Virus record (IMG/VR): IMGVR_UViG_3300020439_000005
Span: 1-64,000 of that record
Source: a virus
Reading direction: 5' to 3' (one strand)
DNA length: 64,000 nucleotides
Part shown: in pieces, positions 1 through 59,722 of the stretch
How positions within the stretch are numbered: the stretch's first letter is position 1
How the letters are laid out: each line of letters starts with the position of its first letter
The notes under the pieces: model-generated
Seen by the model: only the letters and a program-made list of their open reading frames with translations
Told to the model about the DNA's origin: nothing
Database searches by the model: none
Position numbers and translations under genes: made by a program

Positions 1-2639
<2,639 letters not shown>

Positions 2640-2678
2640 AGCATCCTTGCGGTAGTCCTTTTTTCTCTTTTTAACCAT

Positions 2679-2981
2679 TCACCGCACCGTCCATACATCG
2701 AAGGCCGAGCCTCTTTCGTGGTCTATGAACCGAATGTAGGGTTTATCCTCATTACGATTCAAGACCGCCGAGCCACCGAGCATGGAAATAAGAAAATCAC
2801 GTGCCGCTTCTTCTGTTCCGGTCCTGTCCGGCATGACGTATTCTTCTCCGTCATGAAAGACAACCCACATGCCGTCGTCTCTTTTTGAAAGGTGGATTCC
2901 TTCGTGAGTTCCCTTAGATGCTTGAGCCGAGAATGCCAATAGTTCACGTCGACCGTTAGGTCCCTTCTGTGACCACGTCAT
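2679..2981 (-). CDS. Hypothetical protein (~100 aa)
   Basis: ORF; ATG at 2981 overlaps the upstream stop (ATGA). Confidence 0.6.
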   Translation of the reverse strand: MTWSQKGPNGRRELLAFSAQASKGTHEGIHLSKRDDGMWVVFHDGEEYVMPDRTGTEEAARDFLISMLGGSAVLNRNEDKPYIRFIDHERGSAFDVWTVR

Positions 2982-3322: not shown

Positions 3323-3359
3323 TTCGATACTCAGTCCCCCACGTGGCTAATATGCGTGT

Positions 3360-3557
3360 TTATTGTTTCATCACGGGAGACGTCGTCTGCCACGCTTCTT
3401 CTATTACACGAACCACGTTGACGGACACGGGGTTAGTCCTTCTATCGAGTGCAAGTTCATACGCCTTTCTAAGGGCTACACCGACGTTTTTAGCGTCAAT
3501 TTCAACCTGCTCAACGCCTTCATTACCGAAGTCCACATTGACTCTGTATTGAGGCAT
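3360..3557 (-). CDS. Hypothetical protein (65 aa)
   Basis: ATG at 3557 lies 16 nt downstream of a GGTGGG promoter element. Confidence 0.6.
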   Translation of the reverse strand: MPQYRVNVDFGNEGVEQVEIDAKNVGVALRKAYELALDRRTNPVSVNVVRVIEEAWQTTSPVMKQ

Positions 3558-3573
3558 AGTTGAAGGAGGCATC

Positions 3574-3587
3574 CCCACCTACTTAAC
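3574..3587 (-). promoter_or_regulatory. Class B promoter (TATA-like + GGTGGG)
   Basis: GTTAAGTAGGTGGG, 16 nt to ATG 3557. Confidence 0.6.
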
Positions 3588-4415
3588 GTGTAAGCATTGA
3601 TAGATTTTCTCTGCCGTCTTTTTCCCAATGCCTTCTATCTCCATCAAGTCGTCGACTGACGCAGTACAGAGGTCTGCGATACTCGGGTAGACTGCTATTA
3701 TCTTTCTACGGGTTTTCGTACCTATCTTAGGTAAAGACTCCACGATTGCATTTCTGAAATCTGTTGCTTTGGCACCTTTCGGTCTAGGAACGTAAACTCT
3801 AGGGTCATCGTCCTCGACCTTCTCAACTATCCGACTAATTAACTCGGCGGCATCATGCTTGTCGGGGATGAATAGGGGAGGGTAGCCCACGGCGCATAGA
3901 GATGCGATATATCCTAGAAGGACTCGCTCGTTTACGTCTCGCATCATCATGTCGGCTTTGATTTCATTATACGACTTCGTGACTAGAAGATAGGAAAACT
4001 CGGCTTCTTCTCTCATCGACCCTAATTGTCTCAATCTTCGGTCATCAAACAAACTCGGAAGAAAGTCATCTTCCTTTCTTTCGACGGAGACCCGTCGAGT
4101 CGAGATGTCTCCCTTCCCTGTTTCGAGATGGACGATTTCAAAACCGAGATTGTTGAGATACTCGGCGATAACCCAATGCTCCCTGTGGTCAACCTTCTGT
4201 TGTCGGTCAAGGAGTTCCTGTATGATAGCCCTACCGAGCCACTCGCACCGTTCTTCGTGTCCGGTGGGTATTTCGCCCACTTCGATGTTTGCTCCGCTTA
4301 GGAGACGCAACAGAGCCAATTTTCGGCCAAGCCCGCCTGTGCTAGCGGCTTCAACAAAAGCCTCGGGGTTCTCTAGTATCTCTTTAGCCTTGAATGTCTT
4401 ATTGGCGGGTACCAT
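3579..4415 (-). CDS. ERCC4/XPF-family structure-specific nuclease with C-terminal HhH motifs
   Basis: GDISTRRVSVERKEDD matches the GDxnERKx3D motif; LPKIG and IEGIGKKTA helix-hairpin-helix motifs. Confidence 0.9.
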   Translation of the reverse strand: MVPANKTFKAKEILENPEAFVEAASTGGLGRKLALLRLLSGANIEVGEIPTGHEERCEWLGRAIIQELLDRQQKVDHREHWVIAEYLNNLGFEIVHLETGKGDISTRRVSVERKEDDFLPSLFDDRRLRQLGSMREEAEFSYLLVTKSYNEIKADMMMRDVNERVLLGYIASLCAVGYPPLFIPDKHDAAELISRIVEKVEDDDPRVYVPRPKGAKATDFRNAIVESLPKIGTKTRRKIIAVYPSIADLCTASVDDLMEIEGIGKKTAEKIYQCLHVK

Positions 4416-15991: not shown

Positions 15992-16006
15992 CTCACCTTC
16001 TTAATG
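15992..16006 (-). promoter_or_regulatory. Class B promoter (helicase)
   Basis: CATTAAGAAGGTGAG, 16 nt to ATG 15975. Confidence 0.6.
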
Positions 16007-16109
16007 TGGTGCGTCAGAGGAGGGGCCTATGAACGGGAAAAGATGTTAACAAAACCCACCGAGACAAACCCCTCCTCCGACGACTTGTTGAAGGTAATAA
16101 TGCCTCGGC
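16006..16109 (-). ncRNA. Putative pseudoknotted small RNA, copy 1
   Basis: S1 GCCGAGGCA/UGUCUCGGU and S2 CGUCGGAGGAGGGG/CCCCUCCUCUGACG; G-U wobbles only on the minus strand; own promoter 16 nt upstream. Confidence 0.7.
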
Positions 16110-16125
16110 AAATTGACCTATCACT

Positions 16126-16140
16126 CTCACCTATCTAAAG
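16126..16140 (-). promoter_or_regulatory. Class B promoter for ncRNA copy 1
   Basis: CTTTAGATAGGTGAG, exactly 16 nt before G16109. Confidence 0.55.
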
Positions 16141-16158
16141 GGAGCGGTATGATTTCGA

Positions 16159-16257
16159 GTGTTGCGCCGGAGGATGGGCGATATGTCGGGCAAATACACG
16201 AAACCCCACCAACGGGCACCCATCCTCCGACGACTTGCGAAGGTAAACCCCGTTGGC
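16159..16257 (-). ncRNA. Putative pseudoknotted small RNA, copy 2
   Basis: S1 GCCAACGGG/CCCGUUGGU and S2 CGUCGGAGGAUGGG/CCCAUCCUCCGGCG; compensatory changes relative to copy 1. Confidence 0.7.
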
Positions 16258-16273
16258 GAGTCGTCCTCTGACT

Positions 16274-16287
16274 CCCACCTATTTTAC
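16274..16287 (-). promoter_or_regulatory. Class B promoter for ncRNA copy 2
   Basis: GTAAAATAGGTGGG, exactly 16 nt before G16257. Confidence 0.55.
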
Positions 16288-18772: not shown

Positions 18773-19045
18773 GTGAGAGTTCTCAAGCCGGAGAAGGGAT
18801 ATTGCTTAGTTAGACGATGGGTACCCGAACAGACTACTACATCGGGTGTGATAATACAGGATGACGCCGCCTCATACGGCTTCGGTGTTATTGATGCAAT
18901 TAACCCCGATGGAGGCCGAGAATACGACGTAGGCACCATTGTTTTGATAGCAAGTGATAAAGGAACTCCCGTTCAATGGAACGGTAATGTATGTCTCATG
19001 GTTAAGATATACGACATAATAGGAACCGTGGAGGAATCAGAATGA
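18773..19045 (+). CDS. groES: Co-chaperonin GroES (Cpn10)
   Basis: LKPEKGYCLV..EQTTTSGVII..VGTIV..DIIGTVE; overlaps groEL start; likely GTG start at 18773. Confidence 0.8.
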   Translation: MRVLKPEKGYCLVRRWVPEQTTTSGVIIQDDAASYGFGVIDAINPDGGREYDVGTIVLIASDKGTPVQWNGNVCLMVKIYDIIGTVEESE

Positions 19046-20616
19046 AGCGTTCGATATTTGGAGAAGAAGCAAGAGAAGCATTGATGCGAGGAATAGACGA
19101 AGTCGCTAACTCAGTAAAACCAACACTAGGACCTGCGGCTCGTACTGTTATACTAGAGAGGCAGTATGGTTCTCCTATCGTCATCAACGACGGTGTGACT
19201 ATTGCCAAGGACATAGATATGAAAGAGGACCCGTATGCTAATCTCGGTGTTCGCTTGATTCAAGAAGCCGCAAGCAAGGCTCAAGATAACGCAGGTGATG
19301 GTACTACTACTGCGTCGATACTAACTCAGTCTCTATGTACGAAGGGGTTAGCCGAGATGAAGACAGGTAGGAATCCAATCCATATCAAAAAGGGATTCGA
19401 TAAGGCGGTCGAAATTGCAGTAAAGGCGATTGAAGACGCATCTCAAGATGTCGACGACGAATCTTTGGTACACGTTGCTACTATCGCCGCCAACAATGAT
19501 GAGATGATTGGTGGTTTGATTGCCGAGGCTTTCGGCAAGGTCGGTCGAGATGGAATCGTCTCGATTGAAGAATCGAACGGTCTCGATACGACGCTCGAAG
19601 TTGTAGATGGTTTGGAGTTTACTAAGGGTCTCCTTAGCCCACACTTCCTCACCGATGAGGAAAAACAAATCTCGATTTTGAAGAATCCGTTGATTTTGAT
19701 TACAGATGAACACATCAAACACGCTCAAGAGATTGTTGATGTTCTGAATTATTCTGCTGAGATGAAAAGACCATTACTCATCGTAGCGGCTAAACTCGAA
19801 GGAGAAGCACTTGCTACACTCGCTTTGAATGCCACACGTGGCGTCCTTGAAGTCGCCGCAGTTGAGGCTCCTTCCTTTGGTAATTCACGTGAAGAAATCC
19901 TCACCGATATTGCTACGGTCGTTGGTGCAGTTCCTATTTTTGCTAGCAAGGGAATGTCGACACAACGGAACGGCATAGAGTCGCTAGGTCGTGCTAGTAC
20001 GGTCAAATGCTCCATGAAGCGAACTACAATAGTCGGTGGAGCAGGTGTTGATTCTGATATTAAGAAAAGACAGGAGGCTTTGATTGCTCAGTCGAAAGAG
20101 GCTGAGACTGATTGGGAAGCCGAGGCTCTGCGAGCAAGAGCGGGCAAGATTTCCGGTGGAGTAGCGGTACTACATATCGGTGGTAAAACAGAAGCCGAGA
20201 TGAGGGAGCGTGTGGCACGTGTCGACGATTCTCTGAATGCTACTAGAGCGGCCCTGCAAGAGGGAATAGTGCCGGGTGGTTCTATCATGTACCTACGTGC
20301 TAGGGATGAGATTCTTGATGCCTCAGATGATGCCGAAGGGGACGTTTGGTTGGGTATGATGATGGTTCACGATGCCTTGAGCGAACCGTTCCATCAGTTA
20401 TGCTACAATGCAGGTGTCGACGGCTCAGAGGCTTTGGATAAGGTCGTCGAGATGAACGACCCTACATACGGTCTGAATGCTAAGACGCTAGAGTACGGAG
20501 ACCTGCTAGAACAGGGAGTCATAGACCCTGCGAAGGTCGTCAAGAACTCACTAGAGACTGCGGCGTCAATAGCGGGTCTCGTATTGACCACCGAAGTTCT
20601 AGTCGCTGAGGACTAG
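19042..20616 (+). CDS. groEL: Group I chaperonin GroEL (Cpn60)
   Basis: TLGP, NDGVTIAK, AGDGTTT, EGIVPGG, GVIDPAKV motifs. Confidence 0.97.
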   Translation: MKRSIFGEEAREALMRGIDEVANSVKPTLGPAARTVILERQYGSPIVINDGVTIAKDIDMKEDPYANLGVRLIQEAASKAQDNAGDGTTTASILTQSLCTKGLAEMKTGRNPIHIKKGFDKAVEIAVKAIEDASQDVDDESLVHVATIAANNDEMIGGLIAEAFGKVGRDGIVSIEESNGLDTTLEVVDGLEFTKGLLSPHFLTDEEKQISILKNPLILITDEHIKHAQEIVDVLNYSAEMKRPLLIVAAKLEGEALATLALNATRGVLEVAAVEAPSFGNSREEILTDIATVVGAVPIFASKGMSTQRNGIESLGRASTVKCSMKRTTIVGGAGVDSDIKKRQEALIAQSKEAETDWEAEALRARAGKISGGVAVLHIGGKTEAEMRERVARVDDSLNATRAALQEGIVPGGSIMYLRARDEILDASDDAEGDVWLGMMMVHDALSEPFHQLCYNAGVDGSEALDKVVEMNDPTYGLNAKTLEYGDLLEQGVIDPAKVVKNSLETAASIAGLVLTTEVLVAED

Positions 20617-36128: not shown

Positions 36129-36152
36129 TATATAATATGTTCGTTTTGTGAA
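36129..36152 (-). promoter_or_regulatory. Class A promoter
   Basis: TTCACAAAACGAACATATTATATA. Confidence 0.8.
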
Positions 36153-46286: not shown

Positions 46287-47770
46287 GCTAAGTCCTCGCC
46301 ATTCTCAATACCGAGAAGGCGGTAGTCGACTAATTCTTCCATGTCGAAAATAATACCTTCTTCTATCATATCTTGAGCCGCTTCTTCTGTTGACTGTTCT
46401 TCGGGTGCTTCACCGCCTCCGTCTTCAACACGTCCTTTGTTGATAGCCAACTTCGGGCTGAGATAGAATGGGTCGCTTGCATCATCATTGTCTAGTAATG
46501 GCTCAAGACCTAACACTTCTCTAGCCTCATTGATACTGATTGCTGATTCCTGTCTTAGGTTCGATATAGCCTGTGAGCGTAGGCGGAATGTGTCTGCTCT
46601 CTCACTCTCACGTGAAGGTCGTATTGTGTTGAACTTGACTCTCCAATCTGTGATACCTAGTAGGGGGAGTAGTTTGTTATTGATTGCTGAGGATAACCTG
46701 TGGTGATAAGATTCGACTACGTCATACCATGCGTCTAACTGTTGCTCGGGGTTAGCCAACTTGCCCGTCTGAACCCATCCTAGTTTCATTGGTGGAATAC
46801 CAAAGACTGCACAAATCTCCTCTCGGTAGTAGTATAGTAGGTCTAACTGTTGACCTTCTTTGGTCGAGTCGATAAGACGGTGCATATTGAATCCCGAGCC
46901 ACCGTTGATTGCTACTAGGCCAAATGGTGATTTGCCCGAAGTCAATTGTTGCTCAAGAAGTGAAAGCATGGCTTTCATTTCGCTATTTGATATGTCGCCT
47001 ACGTTAAGGATTGTCTTAGGTAGGGTGCCTGTATAGAGTTCGTTTAGGTAGTTGCTCAAGTTCATTTGACCTGCGATTGTATTCAATAACGGGATGAGTG
47101 GGGAAGTTCCGTAGCCACGACCATGTTTGAACTTCGAGATGTGCAGAATCTTATTGCTAGCGAACCTACGCTTCTCCTTTCGTATCTCTTGTATGTAGGC
47201 CATGGCCGGTGGGTCGGGTCGCTGATTGCCCGGTAGTAGTTTGATTGTCTCAGCAGGTACAGGCCATACGCTCACTAGGTCGCCGCCGAATATCCAATCT
47301 TGACCATTCGCTCTGCTTTTGTCTTCGCTACCATCTAACTCAAGGTATGCGTCTCCGAATAATGCTAGGTCATAGACTAGAGCCTCTAGCCATTCGTCGC
47401 CCATGTCGTCGGGATTAGGTTCTCTAAAGAACTCTTGAAGTCTCCTTAGTTGACCCTCATCTCCTTGCTCGATGCCGGAGGCTAGTCCGAACTCGTAGCC
47501 ATTTGCTAGAACGTCATCAACGGTCCTACGTAGGATTGCATTTACCACTTCGGACTTCATCGAAATGTCTCGAATCAAATGATATGATACATTGGTATCT
47601 GCACCGGAAGAAGCCGCTCTCTTTGCTGAGACTGTTGCTATCCGAGATAGAGATGCGAGGGTTTTACCGTCCCACGGCATGTCTGTCTTAGATGTTGGAG
47701 TTGCTACTGCCTCGGCCTTCACATCACGGCTCCGGCGGAAGAATGGAAATCGCCTACGCTCGTCAGCCAT
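46283..47770 (-). CDS. Portal protein (HK97 family)
   Basis: LALFGDAYLE, YGTSPL, EEICAVFGIPPMKLG, INEAREVLGLEP. Confidence 0.92.
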   Translation of the reverse strand: MADERRRFPFFRRSRDVKAEAVATPTSKTDMPWDGKTLASLSRIATVSAKRAASSGADTNVSYHLIRDISMKSEVVNAILRRTVDDVLANGYEFGLASGIEQGDEGQLRRLQEFFREPNPDDMGDEWLEALVYDLALFGDAYLELDGSEDKSRANGQDWIFGGDLVSVWPVPAETIKLLPGNQRPDPPAMAYIQEIRKEKRRFASNKILHISKFKHGRGYGTSPLIPLLNTIAGQMNLSNYLNELYTGTLPKTILNVGDISNSEMKAMLSLLEQQLTSGKSPFGLVAINGGSGFNMHRLIDSTKEGQQLDLLYYYREEICAVFGIPPMKLGWVQTGKLANPEQQLDAWYDVVESYHHRLSSAINNKLLPLLGITDWRVKFNTIRPSRESERADTFRLRSQAISNLRQESAISINEAREVLGLEPLLDNDDASDPFYLSPKLAINKGRVEDGGGEAPEEQSTEEAAQDMIEEGIIFDMEELVDYRLLGIENGEDLA

Positions 47771-47914
47771 GACCATTCCTCATGGGTCGTGGGTTTTCAC
47801 TTTGTCGCTTTAACAGTAATGGCGTCTATCTTACAACAGACGCACCATTCGGGGTGGGGTTCACCCAACGAAGCGCAAGAATCCACAGGTCCATTTAAGC
47901 AATACTTGAAGTGA

Positions 47915-48166
47915 TTACTCTTTGCCGTCATCTTTCTCAGATTCCTTTTTCGCCTTTCGCTCGTCGATGAGTTCGTCTATCTCATCCTTAGCGTCTTCGA
48001 CTTTGTCGACGGCTTCTTCGACTGCATCAAGAACTTCTCCGAGTTCTAATTTGCCGTCTGCTTTGAGTTGTTGGTACTTACGGGCACCCCATATTCCAAG
48101 GGGTACGAGTACGGCCAAAATACCTAGGACTAGAATCGCATCGTCGGTTGTTAGACCCTCAAGCAT
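47915..48166 (-). CDS. Small single-TM protein with EF-hand-like ADGKLELGE (holin-like?)
   Basis: N-terminal TM helix, charged tail. Confidence 0.55.
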   Translation of the reverse strand: MLEGLTTDDAILVLGILAVLVPLGIWGARKYQQLKADGKLELGEVLDAVEEAVDKVEDAKDEIDELIDERKAKKESEKDDGKE

Positions 48167-48207
48167 GTTAGTACCGTAGCGGTAGGTGGTATTTGACGAT
48201 GTTCCTT

Positions 48208-48500
48208 ATGAGAAATTGAGAAGATACCGACCAATCTCACCCCGAACAGGAGTGGACTTAGGGGCCTCCGCCCCCAACGAGGCACCCGAGGTCATCGGGC
48301 GTGTAGACCCTCGCAGGTCGGGTAAGTGCCACGTGCTTATTCCAAATAGGGACGACCCTTTGTCGAATGGTACTAACTACAACATTAGTCCTTCACACTA
48401 GGCTCAGAGAGGGATTTTCGTTATTTTGACCCCCGCATTTCAAGAGCAGGGACTCCGGCCTTCATGGTGGTGTGTGTTCAGTACACCACCGCACTTACAT
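48208..48500 (-). ncRNA. Putative ~290-nt highly structured non-coding RNA
   Basis: Class A promoter followed by ATG-TAA (no substantial ORF); about ten helices, with G-U pairs favouring the minus strand. Confidence 0.65.
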
Positions 48501-48520
48501 TTGAGCGGACAGGGTGTACC

Positions 48521-48543
48521 TATATGAAGTTATCGTTTTGTGT
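48521..48543 (-). promoter_or_regulatory. Class A promoter driving a non-coding region
   Basis: ACACAAAACGATAACTTCATATA. Confidence 0.7.
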
Positions 48544-48894
48544 TTATCTCTTTCCACCGAAGTATTCGGTAGCGTGTCCTTCGTCAATCAGAACCTTGTT
48601 GATATTACGACCGCTAGTAGTTTTGAGTTCGCCTAAGCATCTCCCGTACTTTCCTACCCCGTGTGACTTAACGATGATACGTCCGTCCTTACATAGTTCT
48701 TCCAATCTTTCCTTTGCGGCAAGACCACGGATTTTTTCTTCCTTGTCTCTAGTCCGAGATTCGGGAGCGTTGAGTCCGTACAAACGAACTCTCACGTTGA
48801 AGTGTACTTTGAATCCTAAGTCAACCCTTACGTCGACTGTGTCTCCGTCTACGACTCGCAATACGTCTGCGTAGTATTCCCACATGGAAATCAC
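48544..48894 (-). CDS. Thermonuclease (staphylococcal nuclease family)
   Basis: RVVDGDTVD, RVRLYGLNAPES, GKYGRCLG. Confidence 0.9.
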   Translation of the reverse strand: MISMWEYYADVLRVVDGDTVDVRVDLGFKVHFNVRVRLYGLNAPESRTRDKEEKIRGLAAKERLEELCKDGRIIVKSHGVGKYGRCLGELKTTSGRNINKVLIDEGHATEYFGGKR

Positions 48895-49352
48895 TTGTCG
48901 GATTTCTTCTTTGGTGGAGTTGCAGTTGGATTCGCTTTCGCTCCTGTTGCTACTGAGTTAGTTCCGGTCACACCAAACGCTTCCATGTTTAGTTCGTGAG
49001 CCTTAGCCATCTCCTCCATCTTTAGGTCATGCTCTAACTTAATCTTCTCAAGCATTCGGGAGTGTTCCTCGATTGCCTCAGCAGACTTTACATCTGAGTT
49101 TAATTGGTCGGGTAGAATGTTGATTTTAGCAGATTCTTTTCCTTTGAACAGGTCGAGTACAGAAGTTATGATTAGAAGGGCCGGACCACCTAGGAGACCA
49201 ATAACAGTCAACTGACTGTCTGTTATGTCCCTCTCTTGTACAATAGAGAAGTAGGAAGCGAGAGCCGCTATCATAACCCACATGATTACAACCATGAATC
49301 CGAATATCAACATCAATTTCTCATTCGGGTTGGTCATTTTAACGGATGCCAT
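48891..49352 (-). CDS. Two-TM membrane protein with coiled-coil tail
   Basis: Two hydrophobic helices; start MASVK at 49352 fits promoter spacing, but an upstream start is possible. Confidence 0.6.
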   Translation of the reverse strand: MASVKMTNPNEKLMLIFGFMVVIMWVMIAALASYFSIVQERDITDSQLTVIGLLGGPALLIITSVLDLFKGKESAKINILPDQLNSDVKSAEAIEEHSRMLEKIKLEHDLKMEEMAKAHELNMEAFGVTGTNSVATGAKANPTATPPKKKSDK

Positions 49353-49471
49353 GCCTTTGAACCGAAAAAGCAGGTTCTTTACGGATTGGGTGCAAAAGTA
49401 TATAGTCGTCCATCCCATATAGAAGGCCGCAGTCCCCAAACCGGCGAGGAATAAAACCGTCATCCATGTCC

Positions 49472-49618
49472 CTACGAATCCTTCCGTTTCAACCACCTCT
49501 GAAATCTGTAATTCAATCGGTAGACCAATTCGTTCAATCCTCCGAGAATGGCAATCCCACTTAGACAAAATAAAGTGGTCATTAGACCCATACCGCAAGC
49601 ATCGAAAATATCAGACAT
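49472..49618 (-). CDS. Possible 48-aa membrane peptide
   Basis: MSDIFDACGMGLMTTLFCLSGIAILGGL...; starts just after the upstream stop. Confidence 0.35.
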   Translation of the reverse strand: MSDIFDACGMGLMTTLFCLSGIAILGGLNELVYRLNYRFQRWLKRKDS

Positions 49619-49619
49619 A

Positions 49620-49859
49620 CTACATCATCATTGGAAGACCCATTGAAGCAACAATGAGACCCATGATGTAAAGTCCGTATTTCTTAAGGACGTCCTTAAT
49701 TTCAGATACAAAGGATTCTACATTTGAAAGCCGTTGGTCAATTGATTGCATCTCTAATTTCATTGTCGACATGTCTTTTTCGACATGGAAAAGGTGGTTA
49801 TCTCGGAGCGTCTTCACGTCGTCCACTAACACCTGCAACAAATCGGGGTCCTCACCCAT
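49620..49859 (-). CDS. Coiled-coil protein with C-terminal TM helix
   Basis: NHLFHVE..coiled coil..YGLYIMGLIVASMGL; start 49859 fits promoter spacing. Confidence 0.6.
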   Translation of the reverse strand: MGEDPDLLQVLVDDVKTLRDNHLFHVEKDMSTMKLEMQSIDQRLSNVESFVSEIKDVLKKYGLYIMGLIVASMGLPMMM

Positions 49860-49891
49860 GGAGACCACGAATGTTCTATGGTTATTGACTA

Positions 49892-51403
49892 TCATGCTCC
49901 GAAGACTCGAACCTCGGGCATGCCTATATCCTCGACTAACTCTGCCGCTAACCTTGCATAGAGCAAGGCGTGGAATGCGTGGTCATCTCCGTCACGTCCA
50001 TACTTAGTCAACTTCTGACCCCGAATCGGTCGAGTGTCTTTCTCATCTGTTTCTGCTGACGAGTTCAAACTGCACCACTCATGTAGGACCCACTCTAGTG
50101 AAGTATCTCCGTAGGGAAGTCGTATCTCGTTATTCTTGATTGCCTCAATCGTTTCTTCGACATAGGTCGTTCTGTCGACCACTAACATGTAAATCAGATT
50201 TCGATTATTGTCTCGTCTCTTGTACTCGAACGGAGTCATGGGCCGAGATGAATAGTAGCACGAACGGACACGCTCGCCGAACTCCTGTTGTAGTTCCTTG
50301 ACCTGCCTCGCTCCATATCCTATATCTGCGACCACCTGTGTACAGTTGTAGCGTAGCATTAGGTCTTTGATGACCGCTACCTCATCTGAGTCGTGGTCGG
50401 CCCTAGAATCGAGTTTCAGAGCGTTTAGAATAGTACCATCTTTCTTCATGATAACTACTGTCGTCTCGTTCCCCCAATCAATACCCATCACTGATTCATC
50501 CGGCGGGGTCAAACCTTTCTCGTTCTTCACCAACGTACCATCTGCGGCTTGTAATGCCACGTCGAATGTAAGGGGCTTCGTAGCACCTGCGAAGAACTCA
50601 CCCAAAACTTCGTTTGCGAATCTTCGTGGAGTGTATGTGTTCCTCTTGTATTCAATTTCCTCATCGTCAATATCGGGGTGCATGGCTTGGCTGATGTGAT
50701 AGCCGATTATGTCCGACTCTCCGTGAACCCACTTCTCACCATCCCACTCTCCCTTAGTTGACTTCTCCCATAGTTTCCAAAACTCTGAACCCTGCTCACG
50801 TGCAGTACCCGATACAACCACCCACTTATACTCGGACTGAGCAAGCATCTCAATCAACATCGGCAAAACATCAGCGTCGGAGTCTTGGTATTCGTCAATG
50901 CAACATAGGTCCGCTTCGACACCAAGCAACGCATGTGCGTCACCCCAATTGGAATAGGCATAGAAGTGATTGAGATTTCTTGCTCCAATATCGAATGTTT
51001 GGTGACTGACCGAAGTCTTGATTCTCGGCTTCATCAGACACCCATTATTGATTGACGACATTAAGGCTCCATTGAATCTCTCATCAACAAACCTAGTCAC
51101 CTGTGGTTGTCTAGGAGCGGTGTAAACTGCGTTGAAGTATGGTATGTTCATAAGGCCGTACATCAATAGATTACAGATAGTCTCAGTCTTCTCGACTTTA
51201 CGACTACACTTGAGAACGACCATCTTCGTTTTCTTAGATTTCTGAGTCGCTCCGAAATGTCGGTATATCTCAATCAGATAAGGACGCTCATGCAGTAGGA
51301 ATGGACCGCCGTTAATGGTACGGAAGTATTGCGACCACCTGTCGGGATAGAGAGCAATTTCTCTAGCCTGTTCCGGTGTGAGACGGGCGTCACCCTCGGC
51401 CAT
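49892..51403 (-). CDS. terL: Terminase large subunit
   Basis: KCSRKVEKTE (GpA-like Walker A), CCIDEYQD, VSGTA, MGIDWG, VADIGYG, DDHAFHA. Confidence 0.85.
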   Translation of the reverse strand: MAEGDARLTPEQAREIALYPDRWSQYFRTINGGPFLLHERPYLIEIYRHFGATQKSKKTKMVVLKCSRKVEKTETICNLLMYGLMNIPYFNAVYTAPRQPQVTRFVDERFNGALMSSINNGCLMKPRIKTSVSHQTFDIGARNLNHFYAYSNWGDAHALLGVEADLCCIDEYQDSDADVLPMLIEMLAQSEYKWVVVSGTAREQGSEFWKLWEKSTKGEWDGEKWVHGESDIIGYHISQAMHPDIDDEEIEYKRNTYTPRRFANEVLGEFFAGATKPLTFDVALQAADGTLVKNEKGLTPPDESVMGIDWGNETTVVIMKKDGTILNALKLDSRADHDSDEVAVIKDLMLRYNCTQVVADIGYGARQVKELQQEFGERVRSCYYSSRPMTPFEYKRRDNNRNLIYMLVVDRTTYVEETIEAIKNNEIRLPYGDTSLEWVLHEWCSLNSSAETDEKDTRPIRGQKLTKYGRDGDDHAFHALLYARLAAELVEDIGMPEVRVFGA

Positions 51404-51438
51404 GAGGGGGACTACGCCCCGTCATGGTATTTCACGGT

Positions 51439-52206
51439 TCAAGCCCTTTCAATGGTGCTGTATTGGTCAACCCACTCCTCGGCAGTCCTTCGGTCAGAGA
51501 CGGTCATGATGATGCCTCCTGTGTCCCTGTCGACGATGTTCCACCTGCCGCCGACCGCTTCATGAATGTCGACTCGTACGTTTTCGTACTGCTCCTCTTG
51601 AACCGCCCGTCCGGTCTTTGTCGACCATGGTAGTCCCCAATTCTTAGCACAGGTTGGACCGTAGCCATGTGCGGTGCTACGCTCGTCCTTCAATGGTAGG
51701 TGGCAGAAGCAACAGCGACCTGTCTTCGCTCCATAGTTAATGGCGGCATTTACAGGGTCGGCGTTTAGGTCGTCGATTAGTTGGGTGTACTGTGCATTCG
51801 TCGCTTCGTCCAATGAGCGAAGAAGTTGTAGCGAACCTCGGGATGATACTTTACCTACGTAGTCCCCTAGGTTGGCCTTGAGATAGATTGCTCCGGGATT
51901 GCGTCCTGTTGCAGGTGCTAGAGAGATTTGAAGTTCGGAAAAGTCGTTCATGAAAGTGACCTTTGGCTTCTTGAGATTTTCACCGGCTCGGGTCAACAGA
52001 GATACTAGAGGCATGTATGGGCCTTCGTCTAGGTTGGACTTATTGGTCGCCCCGTACTGAACGATTCGGTCAAGGATTGCTATTTGCCTGTCCGATAGGT
52101 GTTTGCCATTGGCTAACTGCTTCTCGATTGACTCGACGAAGCCCTTTTCCCACTCGTTCTTAGCGTTCTGCTTTGCGGTCTCTATGGTTGTTGCACTGTT
52201 GTTCAT
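51439..52206 (-). CDS. DUF6011-like zinc-finger protein (class A promoter)
   Basis: GRCCFCHLPLKDERSTAHGYGPTCA. Confidence 0.75.
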   Translation of the reverse strand: MNNSATTIETAKQNAKNEWEKGFVESIEKQLANGKHLSDRQIAILDRIVQYGATNKSNLDEGPYMPLVSLLTRAGENLKKPKVTFMNDFSELQISLAPATGRNPGAIYLKANLGDYVGKVSSRGSLQLLRSLDEATNAQYTQLIDDLNADPVNAAINYGAKTGRCCFCHLPLKDERSTAHGYGPTCAKNWGLPWSTKTGRAVQEEQYENVRVDIHEAVGGRWNIVDRDTGGIIMTVSDRRTAEEWVDQYSTIERA

Positions 52207-52228
52207 GTACCGTGGGACAGGCTACGCC

Positions 52229-52252
52229 TATATAACAACTTAGTTTTGTGAG
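52229..52252 (-). promoter_or_regulatory. Class A promoter overlapping the end of the upstream gene
   Basis: CTCACAAAACTAAGTTGTTATATA, 22 nt to ATG 52206. Confidence 0.75.
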
Positions 52253-52695
52253 TCTGTTTCTTGCTTGATTAGTCGTCTGAATACTGCACCCGGAGATTCC
52301 CCGTAGTCTTCTCTCATTTTTTGGAGATAGTTGAGTTCAGATTCTCCAACGATAACTGATAGCGTCTTACGGACGGGCTTAGGTTCGATAATGTCGGGGT
52401 CTTCGATTGCCTCGTTCATGGAAATTGAATAGCCGAGTTTTACTCTCGGGTTGCCGTGATGATTTACTCCGTTCTTCGATACAACTACGGTCTCGATTCC
52501 CGAGTTTTCGTCACGTGCTAGTTTCTTCAAGTCGAATGTTAACTGTCGTGCTGTCCTCTGCATGTTGTGAGGCAGGTCGGGGTCTGCGTTGAACCTCTCT
52601 GCTATTTCTGCCGACGTCAGTACGTCGTGACCCTGTCTCTTTGCAGTCAGTAGTGCTTTGCGTATTATTTTCTTCTGTGTCTTTTTCAAACTCAT
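52240..52695 (-). CDS. Putative transcription regulator (wHTH + ribbon-helix-helix)
   Basis: LTSAEIAERF..ARQLTFDLKKL; C-terminal RKTLSVIV..ELNYLQKM..SPGAVFRRLI. Confidence 0.55.
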   Translation of the reverse strand: MSLKKTQKKIIRKALLTAKRQGHDVLTSAEIAERFNADPDLPHNMQRTARQLTFDLKKLARDENSGIETVVVSKNGVNHHGNPRVKLGYSISMNEAIEDPDIIEPKPVRKTLSVIVGESELNYLQKMREDYGESPGAVFRRLIKQETDSQN

Positions 52696-59074: not shown

Positions 59075-59227
59075 CTACTTATCAATGTTTGCACGTATAG
59101 TGGTTCTCGGGTATATCCTACAACACTTTGCACAAGCCTTGATGTCTTTTCCATTCGTTCTCGGTATGACCTTCTTACACATAACACACACATACGTGGG
59201 TTTAGTGTGGTCCTTCCGCTTCGCCAT
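59075..59227 (-). CDS. Small zinc-finger protein (50 aa), not in ORF track
   Basis: MAKRKDHTKPTYVCVMCKK...ACAKCC...; class B promoter 18 nt upstream. Confidence 0.55.
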   Translation of the reverse strand: MAKRKDHTKPTYVCVMCKKVIPRTNGKDIKACAKCCRIYPRTTIRANIDK

Positions 59228-59245
59228 ACAACGAAAGAGCAGAGT

Positions 59246-59260
59246 CCCACCCTTATGAAG
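59246..59260 (-). promoter_or_regulatory. Class B promoter
   Basis: CTTCATAAGGGTGGG, identical to 11570-11584. Confidence 0.6.
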
Positions 59261-59266
59261 AACGAC

Positions 59267-59722
59267 CTATGATACCATAGTTAGGTACGTTGCTATGTGA
59301 CGTTCTTTGTATTCCCGTTTGGCTCTTGAGTTTTCAAATCTGAGAATCTTCTTCGGCTTGTACCAAAGTTTCTGCTTGTCTTTTGACTCAACGATACGGA
59401 GTGCCTTAGCAACCTTTCTTGTTGCATGGCTCGCTACGATGTACGGCAGTATCGGTCCTATGTCTCGGTCGGGATAATCCGGCCAACATGCGTTGAAGAT
59501 TCGGAGACTTGCTTCTTCGGGTGTTGGTGCCGAGACTGCTAGTGCTACTATTGCATCTATCTCCTCGGCGAAAGCCTCAGCCTCCTTTACTCCCTCATCA
59601 TGTAGAACGTCCTTGAAGTGATTGAACGAACCATAGTGGTCCAACATGATACGCCTAGCCTCATGGTGGGTGAACCCACACTTGAGTCTCAGAGTATTGT
59701 ATAGTTGATTTTTCCACGTCAT
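59267..59722 (-). CDS. Hypothetical protein
   Basis: ATG 59722 overlaps the polB stop (ATGA). Confidence 0.6.
   Translation of the reverse strand: MTWKNQLYNTLRLKCGFTHHEARRIMLDHYGSFNHFKDVLHDEGVKEAEAFAEEIDAIVALAVSAPTPEEASLRIFNACWPDYPDRDIGPILPYIVASHATRKVAKALRIVESKDKQKLWYKPKKILRFENSRAKREYKERHIATYLTMVS

Follow-up and report, generated by a model that had tools for sequence, protein, structure and literature searches.

A probable structured RNA gene of a new family, carried as an accessory cassette by two largely unrelated viruses

Results and Discussion

The minus strand between the terminase and portal genes of an uncultured marine tailed virus very probably carries a real gene for a structured RNA of a new family. 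The DNA that we analyzed, referred to as the window, is a stretch of 64,000 nucleotides (positions 1 to 64,000 of IMG/VR virus record IMGVR_UViG_3300020439_000005). An initial annotation of it had proposed an uncharacterized large structured viral noncoding RNA (ncRNA) under a class A promoter, and this proposal is borne out by the lack of any Rfam match and by covariation with a homologous locus, L139, found in a second virus. Our broader reading is of a self-contained, horizontally exchanged gene whose product is a structured ncRNA of ~275 to 290 nt that belongs to no described family and probably acts in trans, and we lean toward this reading as a whole. That the RNA acts in trans specifically on a host factor is a more tentative suggestion.

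Locus, promoter, and predicted start

The minus strand of the window carries nearly all of its genes, as well as all nine copies of the class A promoter, which are spaced about 4 kb apart. The features of the locus are summarized in Table 1. As the initial annotation had noticed, the promoter copy studied here leads to ATG-TAA and then to a stretch, about 290 nt in that annotation and about 280 nt in our analysis, that holds no substantial minus-strand ORF: from 48498 to 48167, the sense strand has stops in every frame, and no open frame is conserved with the homologs. The distance from ATG-TAA to the ATG of orf83 (48166) is about 330 nt, and the RNA lies 60 nt upstream of orf83. The plus-strand ORF at 48186-48401, whose conservation and translation had been named as a possible refutation, has no protein counterpart in the homolog, where the BLASTP result (E 0.06) spanned just 9 residues. 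Neither strand has a frame, whichever of them is read, that the window and its homologs have in common, and the indels between homologs are not in multiples of three.

In motif and spacing, the promoter fits an archaeal BRE/TATA form, with an A-rich element, an 8-bp TATA box, and 22 nt from the box to G48498. From its place directly upstream of the TATA box, we interpret CACAAAAC as the BRE. In archaeal transcription, the TATA box is centered near −26 and leaderless mRNAs are common. The spacing read from the sequence of this virus centers the box near −26: in six of the seven protein-coding units, a distance of 21-23 nt separates the final A of the box from the A of the ATG, and the remaining unit has a box-to-ATG distance of 35 nt, with GGAG. 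The spacer of the RNA unit is 2 nt shorter, so that the modal +1 falls on G48498, which lies at the modal spacing of 22 nt after the TATA box. Judged by this spacing, transcription most likely starts at G48498. The RNA would then begin with P1. The leader-like bases that this unit shares with other genes would belong to the promoter, as would ATG-TAA, which is more likely left over from the promoter cassette than a mini-ORF that is transcribed. We also considered a leader helix, ACCCU/AGGGU, together with a functional start-stop mini-ORF and dropped both, since their bases lie upstream of the predicted start. The spacer block CCCTGTCCGCTNAAAT is identical in L058, L139, and L145-L151, and spacers similar to that of the RNA unit precede real ORFs at 36150 and 16716 in the window and at 1368 in L139.

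Metatranscriptome contigs identical to 48313-48498, 48332-48498, and 48313-48469 were found in three runs of one sample from a single study. The X7 and X8 contigs both end at 48498, each with three unmatched letters on that side, and short contigs in orf235 and in the portal gene have similar depth in the same RNA runs. These are contig data with possible DNA carry-over, and they give a weak hint of a minus-strand RNA starting at 48498; the 5′ end that had been predicted near 48500 gains two contig ends from one sample. Positions 48222-48312 are covered by none of the RNA-library contigs, which is uninformative. In an independent marine sample, two contigs of DNA run X3 end at 48319 and start at 48491, with flanks identical to the window. 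These breaks lie at the borders of the RNA 5′ domain and may reflect population variation inside it.

Table 1. Features of the RNA locus in window coordinates, in the order of minus-strand transcription
Feature	Position	Strand	Basis or remark
SNase-family nuclease gene, 116 aa	48544..48894	minus	Pfam PF00565, E 3.6e-12; TAA end adjoins promoter
Class A promoter motif, 23 nt	48520-48542	minus	CACAAAAC-N6-TT(C/A)ATATAG
A-rich BRE-like element CACAAAAC of class A promoter	48535..48542	minus	repeated motif, nine copies
TATA box TTCATATA of class A promoter	48521..48528	minus	box-to-ATG spacing of coding units
Spacer from TATA box to predicted start, with block CCCTGTCCGCTNAAAT and AT of ATG	48499..48520	minus	
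ATG-TAA	48500-48495	minus	19 nt after the 23-nt promoter motif
Predicted transcription start, G of ATG and first base of P1	G48498	minus	spacing and contig ends
P1, 5′ strand GUAAGUGC	48491..48498	minus	pairs with 48322-48329 in MFE and centroid folds
P2 hairpin GGUGGUGU/ACACCACC, 8-bp stem, 9-nt loop ACUGAACAC (48474-48482)	48466..48490	minus	
P3, 5′ strand GGC-CGGAG, preceded by invariant AUGAA	48453..48460	minus	pairs with 48401-48409
Variable insert inside P3: local hairpin CCCUGC/GCGGGG and A-rich stretch	48410..48452	minus	
P3, 3′ strand CUCUG-A-GCC	48401..48409	minus	L139 comparison
Junction region: invariant AGUG, AAAGGGU, UAUUU, AAGC and a window-only hairpin (48372-48389)	48335..48399	minus	
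P1, 3′ strand GCACUUAC	48322..48329	minus	MFE and centroid folds; L139 fold
3′ domain, four-way junction P5-P8	48227..48321	minus	model R1 and L139
P5 CCGACC/GGUCGG	48316-48321 with 48227-48232	minus	present in both viruses
P6 GCGAGG/CCUCGU, apical hairpin 48283-48301	48309-48314 with 48277-48282	minus	both viruses
P7 UGGGGGC/GCCCCUA	48259-48276	minus	supported by L139
P8 CACUCC/GGGGUG, loop UGUUC (48244-48248)	48238-48254	minus	supported by L139
U-rich tail and conserved CUCAUAA, 14 nt after P5	48206..48226	minus	
orf83, conserved small gene upstream of portal, first gene 3′ of the RNA	47915..48166	minus	83 codons; kept in relatives

Predicted fold and its comparative support

The minus strand of 48208-48520 folds at −116.1 kcal/mol, with a z-score of −2.79 and 1 of 100 shuffles as good, against a z-score of −0.87 for the plus strand. 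With the refined ends 48498-48222, the z-score improved to −3.73 and none of 200 shuffles was as good, confirming the expectation that the minus strand would fold better than shuffled controls. Folded alone from its inferred start, the L139 RNA adopts the same layout of P1, P2, and P5-P8 (z −2.27). With the promoter sequence included, the L139 fold reached a z-score of only −1.4 and the antisense strand scored the same; the L058-type variant region described below reached only −1.0.

In order to compare the two RNAs, we aligned the window and L139 by hand, anchored on identical blocks, over seven helices with 41 aligned pairs. In this single pairwise comparison, for which both the hand alignment and the model alignment below were fitted toward the structure, 28 pairs are unchanged, 12 carry double compensatory changes, one changes on one side (G-U to G-C), and none is broken. 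The anchored single-stranded blocks are identical at 44 of 44 positions versus 57 of 82 helix columns, and partner shuffles kept all pairs in 0 of 100,000 cases. As a less alignment-dependent check, we built a covariance model of the 3′ domain, R1, from the window sequence alone. R1 finds L139 with 47.6 bits (E 8.4e-11) and has no other match in about 1.05 Mb of related viral DNA. In its alignment, 13 pairs change on both sides and 100% of the cells pair, which 0 of 500 shuffles reached; controls with slid partners gave 34-50% pairing. Several helices keep G-U pairs on the sense strand only, with C-A mismatches on the other strand, as had been claimed for the many G-U pairs of the minus strand.

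At the level of predicted structure, this comparison shows a two-domain fold, in which a 5′ domain closed by P1 abuts the four-way junction P5-P8. The 7-bp helix GUAAGUG/CACUUAC of P1 was predicted independently in L139. P2 differs from its L139 counterpart by three compensatory pairs and has an identical loop, and this loop, ACUGAACAC, is also identical in the variant RNAs L058, L146, and L147. P3 shows one compensatory and one one-sided change; its insert is 43 nt long in the window versus 94 nt of different sequence in L139. The junction blocks AGUG, AAAGGGU, UAUUU, and AAGC are identical in L139, where the hairpin at 48372-48389 is absent. The only GNAR loop, GGAG on P7, is GUUU in L139. 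CUCAUAA occurs at the same distance after P5 in both viruses, and P5 is followed in L139 by a run of seven T, whereas the window has no T run longer than three. The P8 loop UGUUC is complementary to GAACA of the P2 loop, and both are invariant in the two viruses, making a P2-P8 loop-loop tertiary contact that ties the domains together plausible. We saw no enrichment in the window for sequence complementary to the P2 loop.

The comparison also sorts the eleven helices that had been drawn from the window alone. Five are supported by L139, namely P1, P2 (GGUGGUGU/ACACCACC), P3, UGGGGGC/GCCCCUA (P7), and CACUCC/GGGGUG (P8). Another three (CCCUGC/GCGGGG, ACUAAU/GUUAGU, and CGCCCGA/UCGGGUG) are variable or specific to the window. 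CGAC/GUCG, the GNRA hairpin GACCU-GCGA-GGGUC, and GAGAUUGG/UCAAUUUC are not conserved in L139; the GNRA hairpin and the terminal GAGAUUGG/UCAAUUUC give way to P5 and P6 in both viruses.

The RNA gene as an accessory cassette

Our comparison drew on 56 viral contigs carrying a gene for a related portal. Among the closest of them (portal 84% and terminase 92% identical), the gene order is orf255, terminase, orf91, orf235, orf83, portal, with 32 nt between the orf235 stop and the orf83 ATG. The SNase gene is absent from L001-L009, L036, and L053. Measured against the 32-nt gap of the relatives, the window carries an insertion of about 725 bp that consists of the SNase gene, the promoter, and the noncoding stretch. 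The only class A promoter in a 13-kb neighborhood of the close relative L036 stands before orf255, indicating that the promoter at 48542 came with the insertion. No copy of the RNA was found at the sequence level anywhere in the complete genomes of five relatives.

Searches of the region with nhmmer and blastn against the 56 portal-anchored relatives and 80 SNase loci returned only L058, and there only the promoter and the first hairpin. L058 has the same layout as the window and an SNase that is 89% identical. What it has in common with the window is limited to the promoter spacer, the first bases, and the first hairpin, which is P2 with the same loop; about 450 nt of different noncoding sequence come next, with no 3′ domain. 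Near its start, GUAGUU can pair with AACUAC at the far end of the noncoding region. A second class-A-like promoter, GGCAAAAC-N6-TTCATATAC, is located in L058 3770-3837, directly before orf83, where it overlaps a potential closing strand for P1 in the variant RNA.

Scanning with the shared spacer led to L139 and L140. L139 sits on G001, a complete viral genome of 69 kb, and its element aligns with that of the window from the TATA box to the CUCAUAA after the last helix. Both an SNase and any detectable homolog of the window's portal are missing from G001; it shares only about ten ORFs with the window's genome, G000, and the GC contents are 42.6% and 48.9%, respectively. At the RNA, the DNA homology between G000 and G001 begins inside the TATA box, and no downstream gene is shared. 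The G001 element lies among small ORFs in a 5-kb region that is mostly noncoding and repeat-rich. As judged from these alignments, the unit of promoter, RNA, and tail is shown to behave as an accessory cassette, shared with a largely unrelated virus in another context. The search for synteny and covariation proposed at the outset gave covariation with L139, in a different gene context.

These distributions also bear on two roles suggested earlier from the location of the RNA. A packaging RNA is contradicted by the absence of the element from relatives with an 84% identical portal and by its presence in G001 without a portal homolog. A partner of the adjacent thermonuclease fares no better, as G001 has the RNA without an SNase and 79 other SNase loci are without the RNA. 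The earlier idea of a host-takeover or anti-defense decoy, drawn from the promoter class, could still hold.

The RNA family is rare. It comprises two distinct full-length sequences, those of the window and L139, and the other L139-type matches are identical copies; the variant type is represented by L058 and L146 in full and by L145 and L147 in truncated form. Three contigs that match L139 exactly and three further L058-type contigs came from a scan of metagenomes. Our initial scan of genome contigs returned nothing, a scan with the L058-type core found only its own contig, and a phage collection searched with DNA gave no match. Scans with the patterns of other conserved blocks in viral and cellular genomes otherwise gave chance hits only, in coding DNA (L142-L144, L148, L152, L153, L159-L163). 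The ORF that precedes the RNA in L139 matched nothing except the identical contigs, and PHROGs and Pfam assigned no function to the L139 neighbor ORFs, orf83, or orf235. Many near-identical contigs of 79-81 kb exist, and ENA and Logan assemblies include close relatives with a portal at least 90% identical.

Several further observations concern the two genomes and their relatives. The palindrome CTACAAATTTGTAG occurs in 17 copies (ten exact, seven with one mismatch) at G001 47500-52400, covering L139 and L166, around the RNA; elsewhere in the 69-kb genome, there is only one copy, with one mismatch. By appearance, these copies could be operators, promoters, or terminators belonging to an early region. 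The orf235 product (window 48891-49598) is 62% identical over 122 aa to that of G001 59224-59658, with 73% DNA identity over 186 nt, and a GroEL-like gene (19042-20616, plus strand) is also common to G001, at 33%. In the relative L029, positions 3359-3600 directly after the terminase gene form a GC-rich stretch of ~240 nt with no plus-strand ORF of at least 60 codons, preceded by a TATA-like motif and apparently followed by a convergent gene; it may be another noncoding unit at an analogous place. On the minus strand of the window at 16006-16287, two similar units with complements of the GGAGG...CCUCC type are visible, and if they are real, the virus carries several small RNA genes. The minus strand of window positions 1-2700 has 9-nt-periodic repeats that encode collagen-like Gly-X-Y in an ORF of at least 892 codons.

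Affinity of the virus

The only near-full-length matches of the family B polymerase are to haloarchaeal tailed viruses. Further genes of this virus code for an XPD-like helicase, a primase-polymerase-like protein, and a TET-associated glycosyltransferase. From the form of the promoter and the affinity of the polymerase, the host is probably archaeal. Magroviruses, as described in PMC5434244, carry a fuller replisome than the window's virus, and we have therefore not assigned the virus to them.

Comparison with known RNAs and similar systems

Rfam 15 gave no matches at gathering thresholds over the whole window. With the threshold relaxed to E 10, the region and three homologous loci produced chance-level hits only (E 0.1-10), none of them shared between homologs, so the suggested Rfam check yielded nothing relevant. 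Models of SRP, RNase P, ribozymes, and introns had no match at E up to 10, in keeping with the earlier failure to find an RNase P or SRP motif. ARAGORN found no tRNA or tmRNA in the window, and the arm and loop sizes of P5-P8 do not fit a tRNA. Further candidates were tried and rejected. A group I or II intron does not suit an intergenic element with intact flanking genes and no intron model match. By eye, neither a CsrA-type GGA sponge, C/D or H/ACA boxes, a k-turn, a B12-box, nor a tRNA-like element fits. A riboswitch or cis-regulatory leader recognized by conserved position is at odds with downstream genes that differ among the window, L139, and L058.

Among described systems, GOLLD, ROOL, and similar orphan RNAs of phages and prophages resemble the window RNA in being long, multi-helix ncRNAs with invariant junction nucleotides. 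Like it, they are accessory genes of tailed viruses with a patchy distribution. Unlike GOLLD and ROOL, the window RNA has no Rfam match, is at most half as large, follows a BRE/TATA promoter of archaeal type, and is carried by few marine viral contigs. Archaeal SRP (7S) RNA and RNase P RNA are similar in size (about 300 nt), in their multiple domains, and in having ends paired in a closing helix, but no model match appeared at E 10 and the helix 8 and P4 signatures are absent from the window RNA.

The phi29-type pRNA is likewise a structured RNA encoded by a virus, and the window RNA shares with it a position beside packaging genes and potential loop-loop complementarity. The differences are considerable. 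There is no Rfam pRNA match, the window's virus encodes a standard large terminase, the RNA is missing from close relatives whose portal and terminase are the same, and G001 has it without a related portal and far from any such gene. In addition, the loops of pRNA pair between molecules to form a ring on the connector, whereas the complementarity seen in the window RNA is between loops of one molecule. Phage morons offer a parallel in organization, with their own promoter, a T-run terminator (as in L139), a place between conserved genes, absence from close relatives, and sharing across unrelated viruses; the cargo in the window is a structured RNA instead of a protein gene, and the promoter is archaeal-type. 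The antiterminator RNAs HK022 put and EAR are also folded RNAs that lie 3′ of a viral promoter and upstream of a long operon, but the window RNA is four times larger, its downstream context is not conserved, and its sequence and structure are unrelated to theirs.

Alternative explanations

Because the RNA lies only 60 nt upstream of orf83, because the minus strand shows neither a T run nor a terminator-like hairpin from P5 to orf83, and because no further class A promoter follows the one at 48542 until 44753, the element could be a cis-acting structured leader of the orf83-portal-head operon that works through ligand- or protein-dependent termination, processing, or stability. We consider such a leader unlikely. 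Close relatives express the same operon with neither this promoter nor the RNA, and no downstream gene is common to the window and L139. In L139, seven T come after the RNA, and the small ORFs beyond them are unrelated and have promoter-like elements of their own; the L058-type orf83 has its own class-A-like promoter after the RNA. A ribozyme or the remnant of a mobile element, meaning a self-cleaving or self-splicing RNA or a noncoding part that travels with the nuclease gene, appears still less probable. Such an origin would agree with the fact that, compared with its closest relatives, the virus has the RNA and the nuclease gene inserted together, with the occurrence of the RNA in two nearly unrelated viruses, with its two-domain fold and many invariant junction nucleotides, and with the breaks in the X3 DNA contigs at 48319 and 48491, which flank the 5′ domain. 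Against it, even a threshold of E 10 brought up no ribozyme or intron model of Rfam, and no gene is interrupted, with SNase and orf83 both at full length. Moreover, G001 carries the RNA without SNase, the 79 other SNase loci are without it, and contigs mapped onto the locus show no joints.

The remaining explanations dispense with a functional RNA. Inverted repeats could serve at the DNA level as a packaging or replication site near the terminase, as the position between the terminase and portal genes and the repeat-rich, mostly noncoding 5-kb surroundings in G001 might suggest. We regard this as highly improbable, since the G-U pairs that are kept would be C-A mismatches on the other strand, the compensatory changes keep pairing and not sequence, the element has a promoter at one border and, in L139, a T run at the other, and close relatives package without it. 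A decayed gene with a fortuitous fold would suit the modest folding z-scores of the homologs, of which the L058 type reaches only −1.0. This is scarcely credible given the lack of a shared reading frame on either strand, the indels that are not multiples of three, the 12 to 13 double changes with no broken pair, and the perfectly conserved single-stranded blocks.

Putative mechanism and implications

For the structured RNA gene that we favor, the following course of events is consistent with the evidence. The RNA polymerase of a probably archaeal host would transcribe the minus strand from the BRE/TATA promoter, and the transcript would start at G48498 and end after P5. It would then assume a compact tertiary fold held by the P2-P8 loop-loop contact and act in trans, the target being a component of the host or some widely shared factor. 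As its carriers share only the promoter type and presumably the host, we infer that any action in trans would most simply be on a host factor. The role might be that of a protein-binding decoy or scaffold, with a ribozyme less likely, and we do not see the RNA as partnering the portal, terminase, or nuclease. In support of an independent unit, the RNA has its own promoter, P5 of the L139 copy is followed by a T run and then by promoter-like palindromes, and orf83 in L058 has a class-A-like promoter to itself. Between P5 and orf83, the window has no T run and no second promoter; read-through into orf83 and portal is therefore likely there, and the RNA of this virus may be just the 5′ portion of the orf83-portal transcript.

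In its widest form, our proposal is a new class of large RNA in marine archaeal tailed viruses. A cassette of promoter, RNA, and terminator would move between unrelated viruses of the same host, and its product would target a host factor in trans, serving as a decoy for a defense or RNA-binding protein or as a ribozyme, with the L058 variant sharing only the start, P1, and P2. We hold this wider proposal to be possible, at somewhat less than an even chance. To our knowledge, no family of large structured ncRNAs has been described for marine archaeal viruses.

The locus is a complete small RNA transcription unit common to two viruses with almost nothing else in common, and such sharing points to an advantage in the host rather than in one virus's own machinery. 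At ~280 nt, the RNA is a short target for structure probing, cryo-EM, and pull-downs, and it provides a search model for marine metatranscriptomes. The spacing of the promoter is a testable rule for transcript starts in these uncultured viruses. Should the RNA turn out to work as a decoy or ribozyme, the conflict between viruses and their hosts in abundant planktonic archaea would gain an RNA-based participant.
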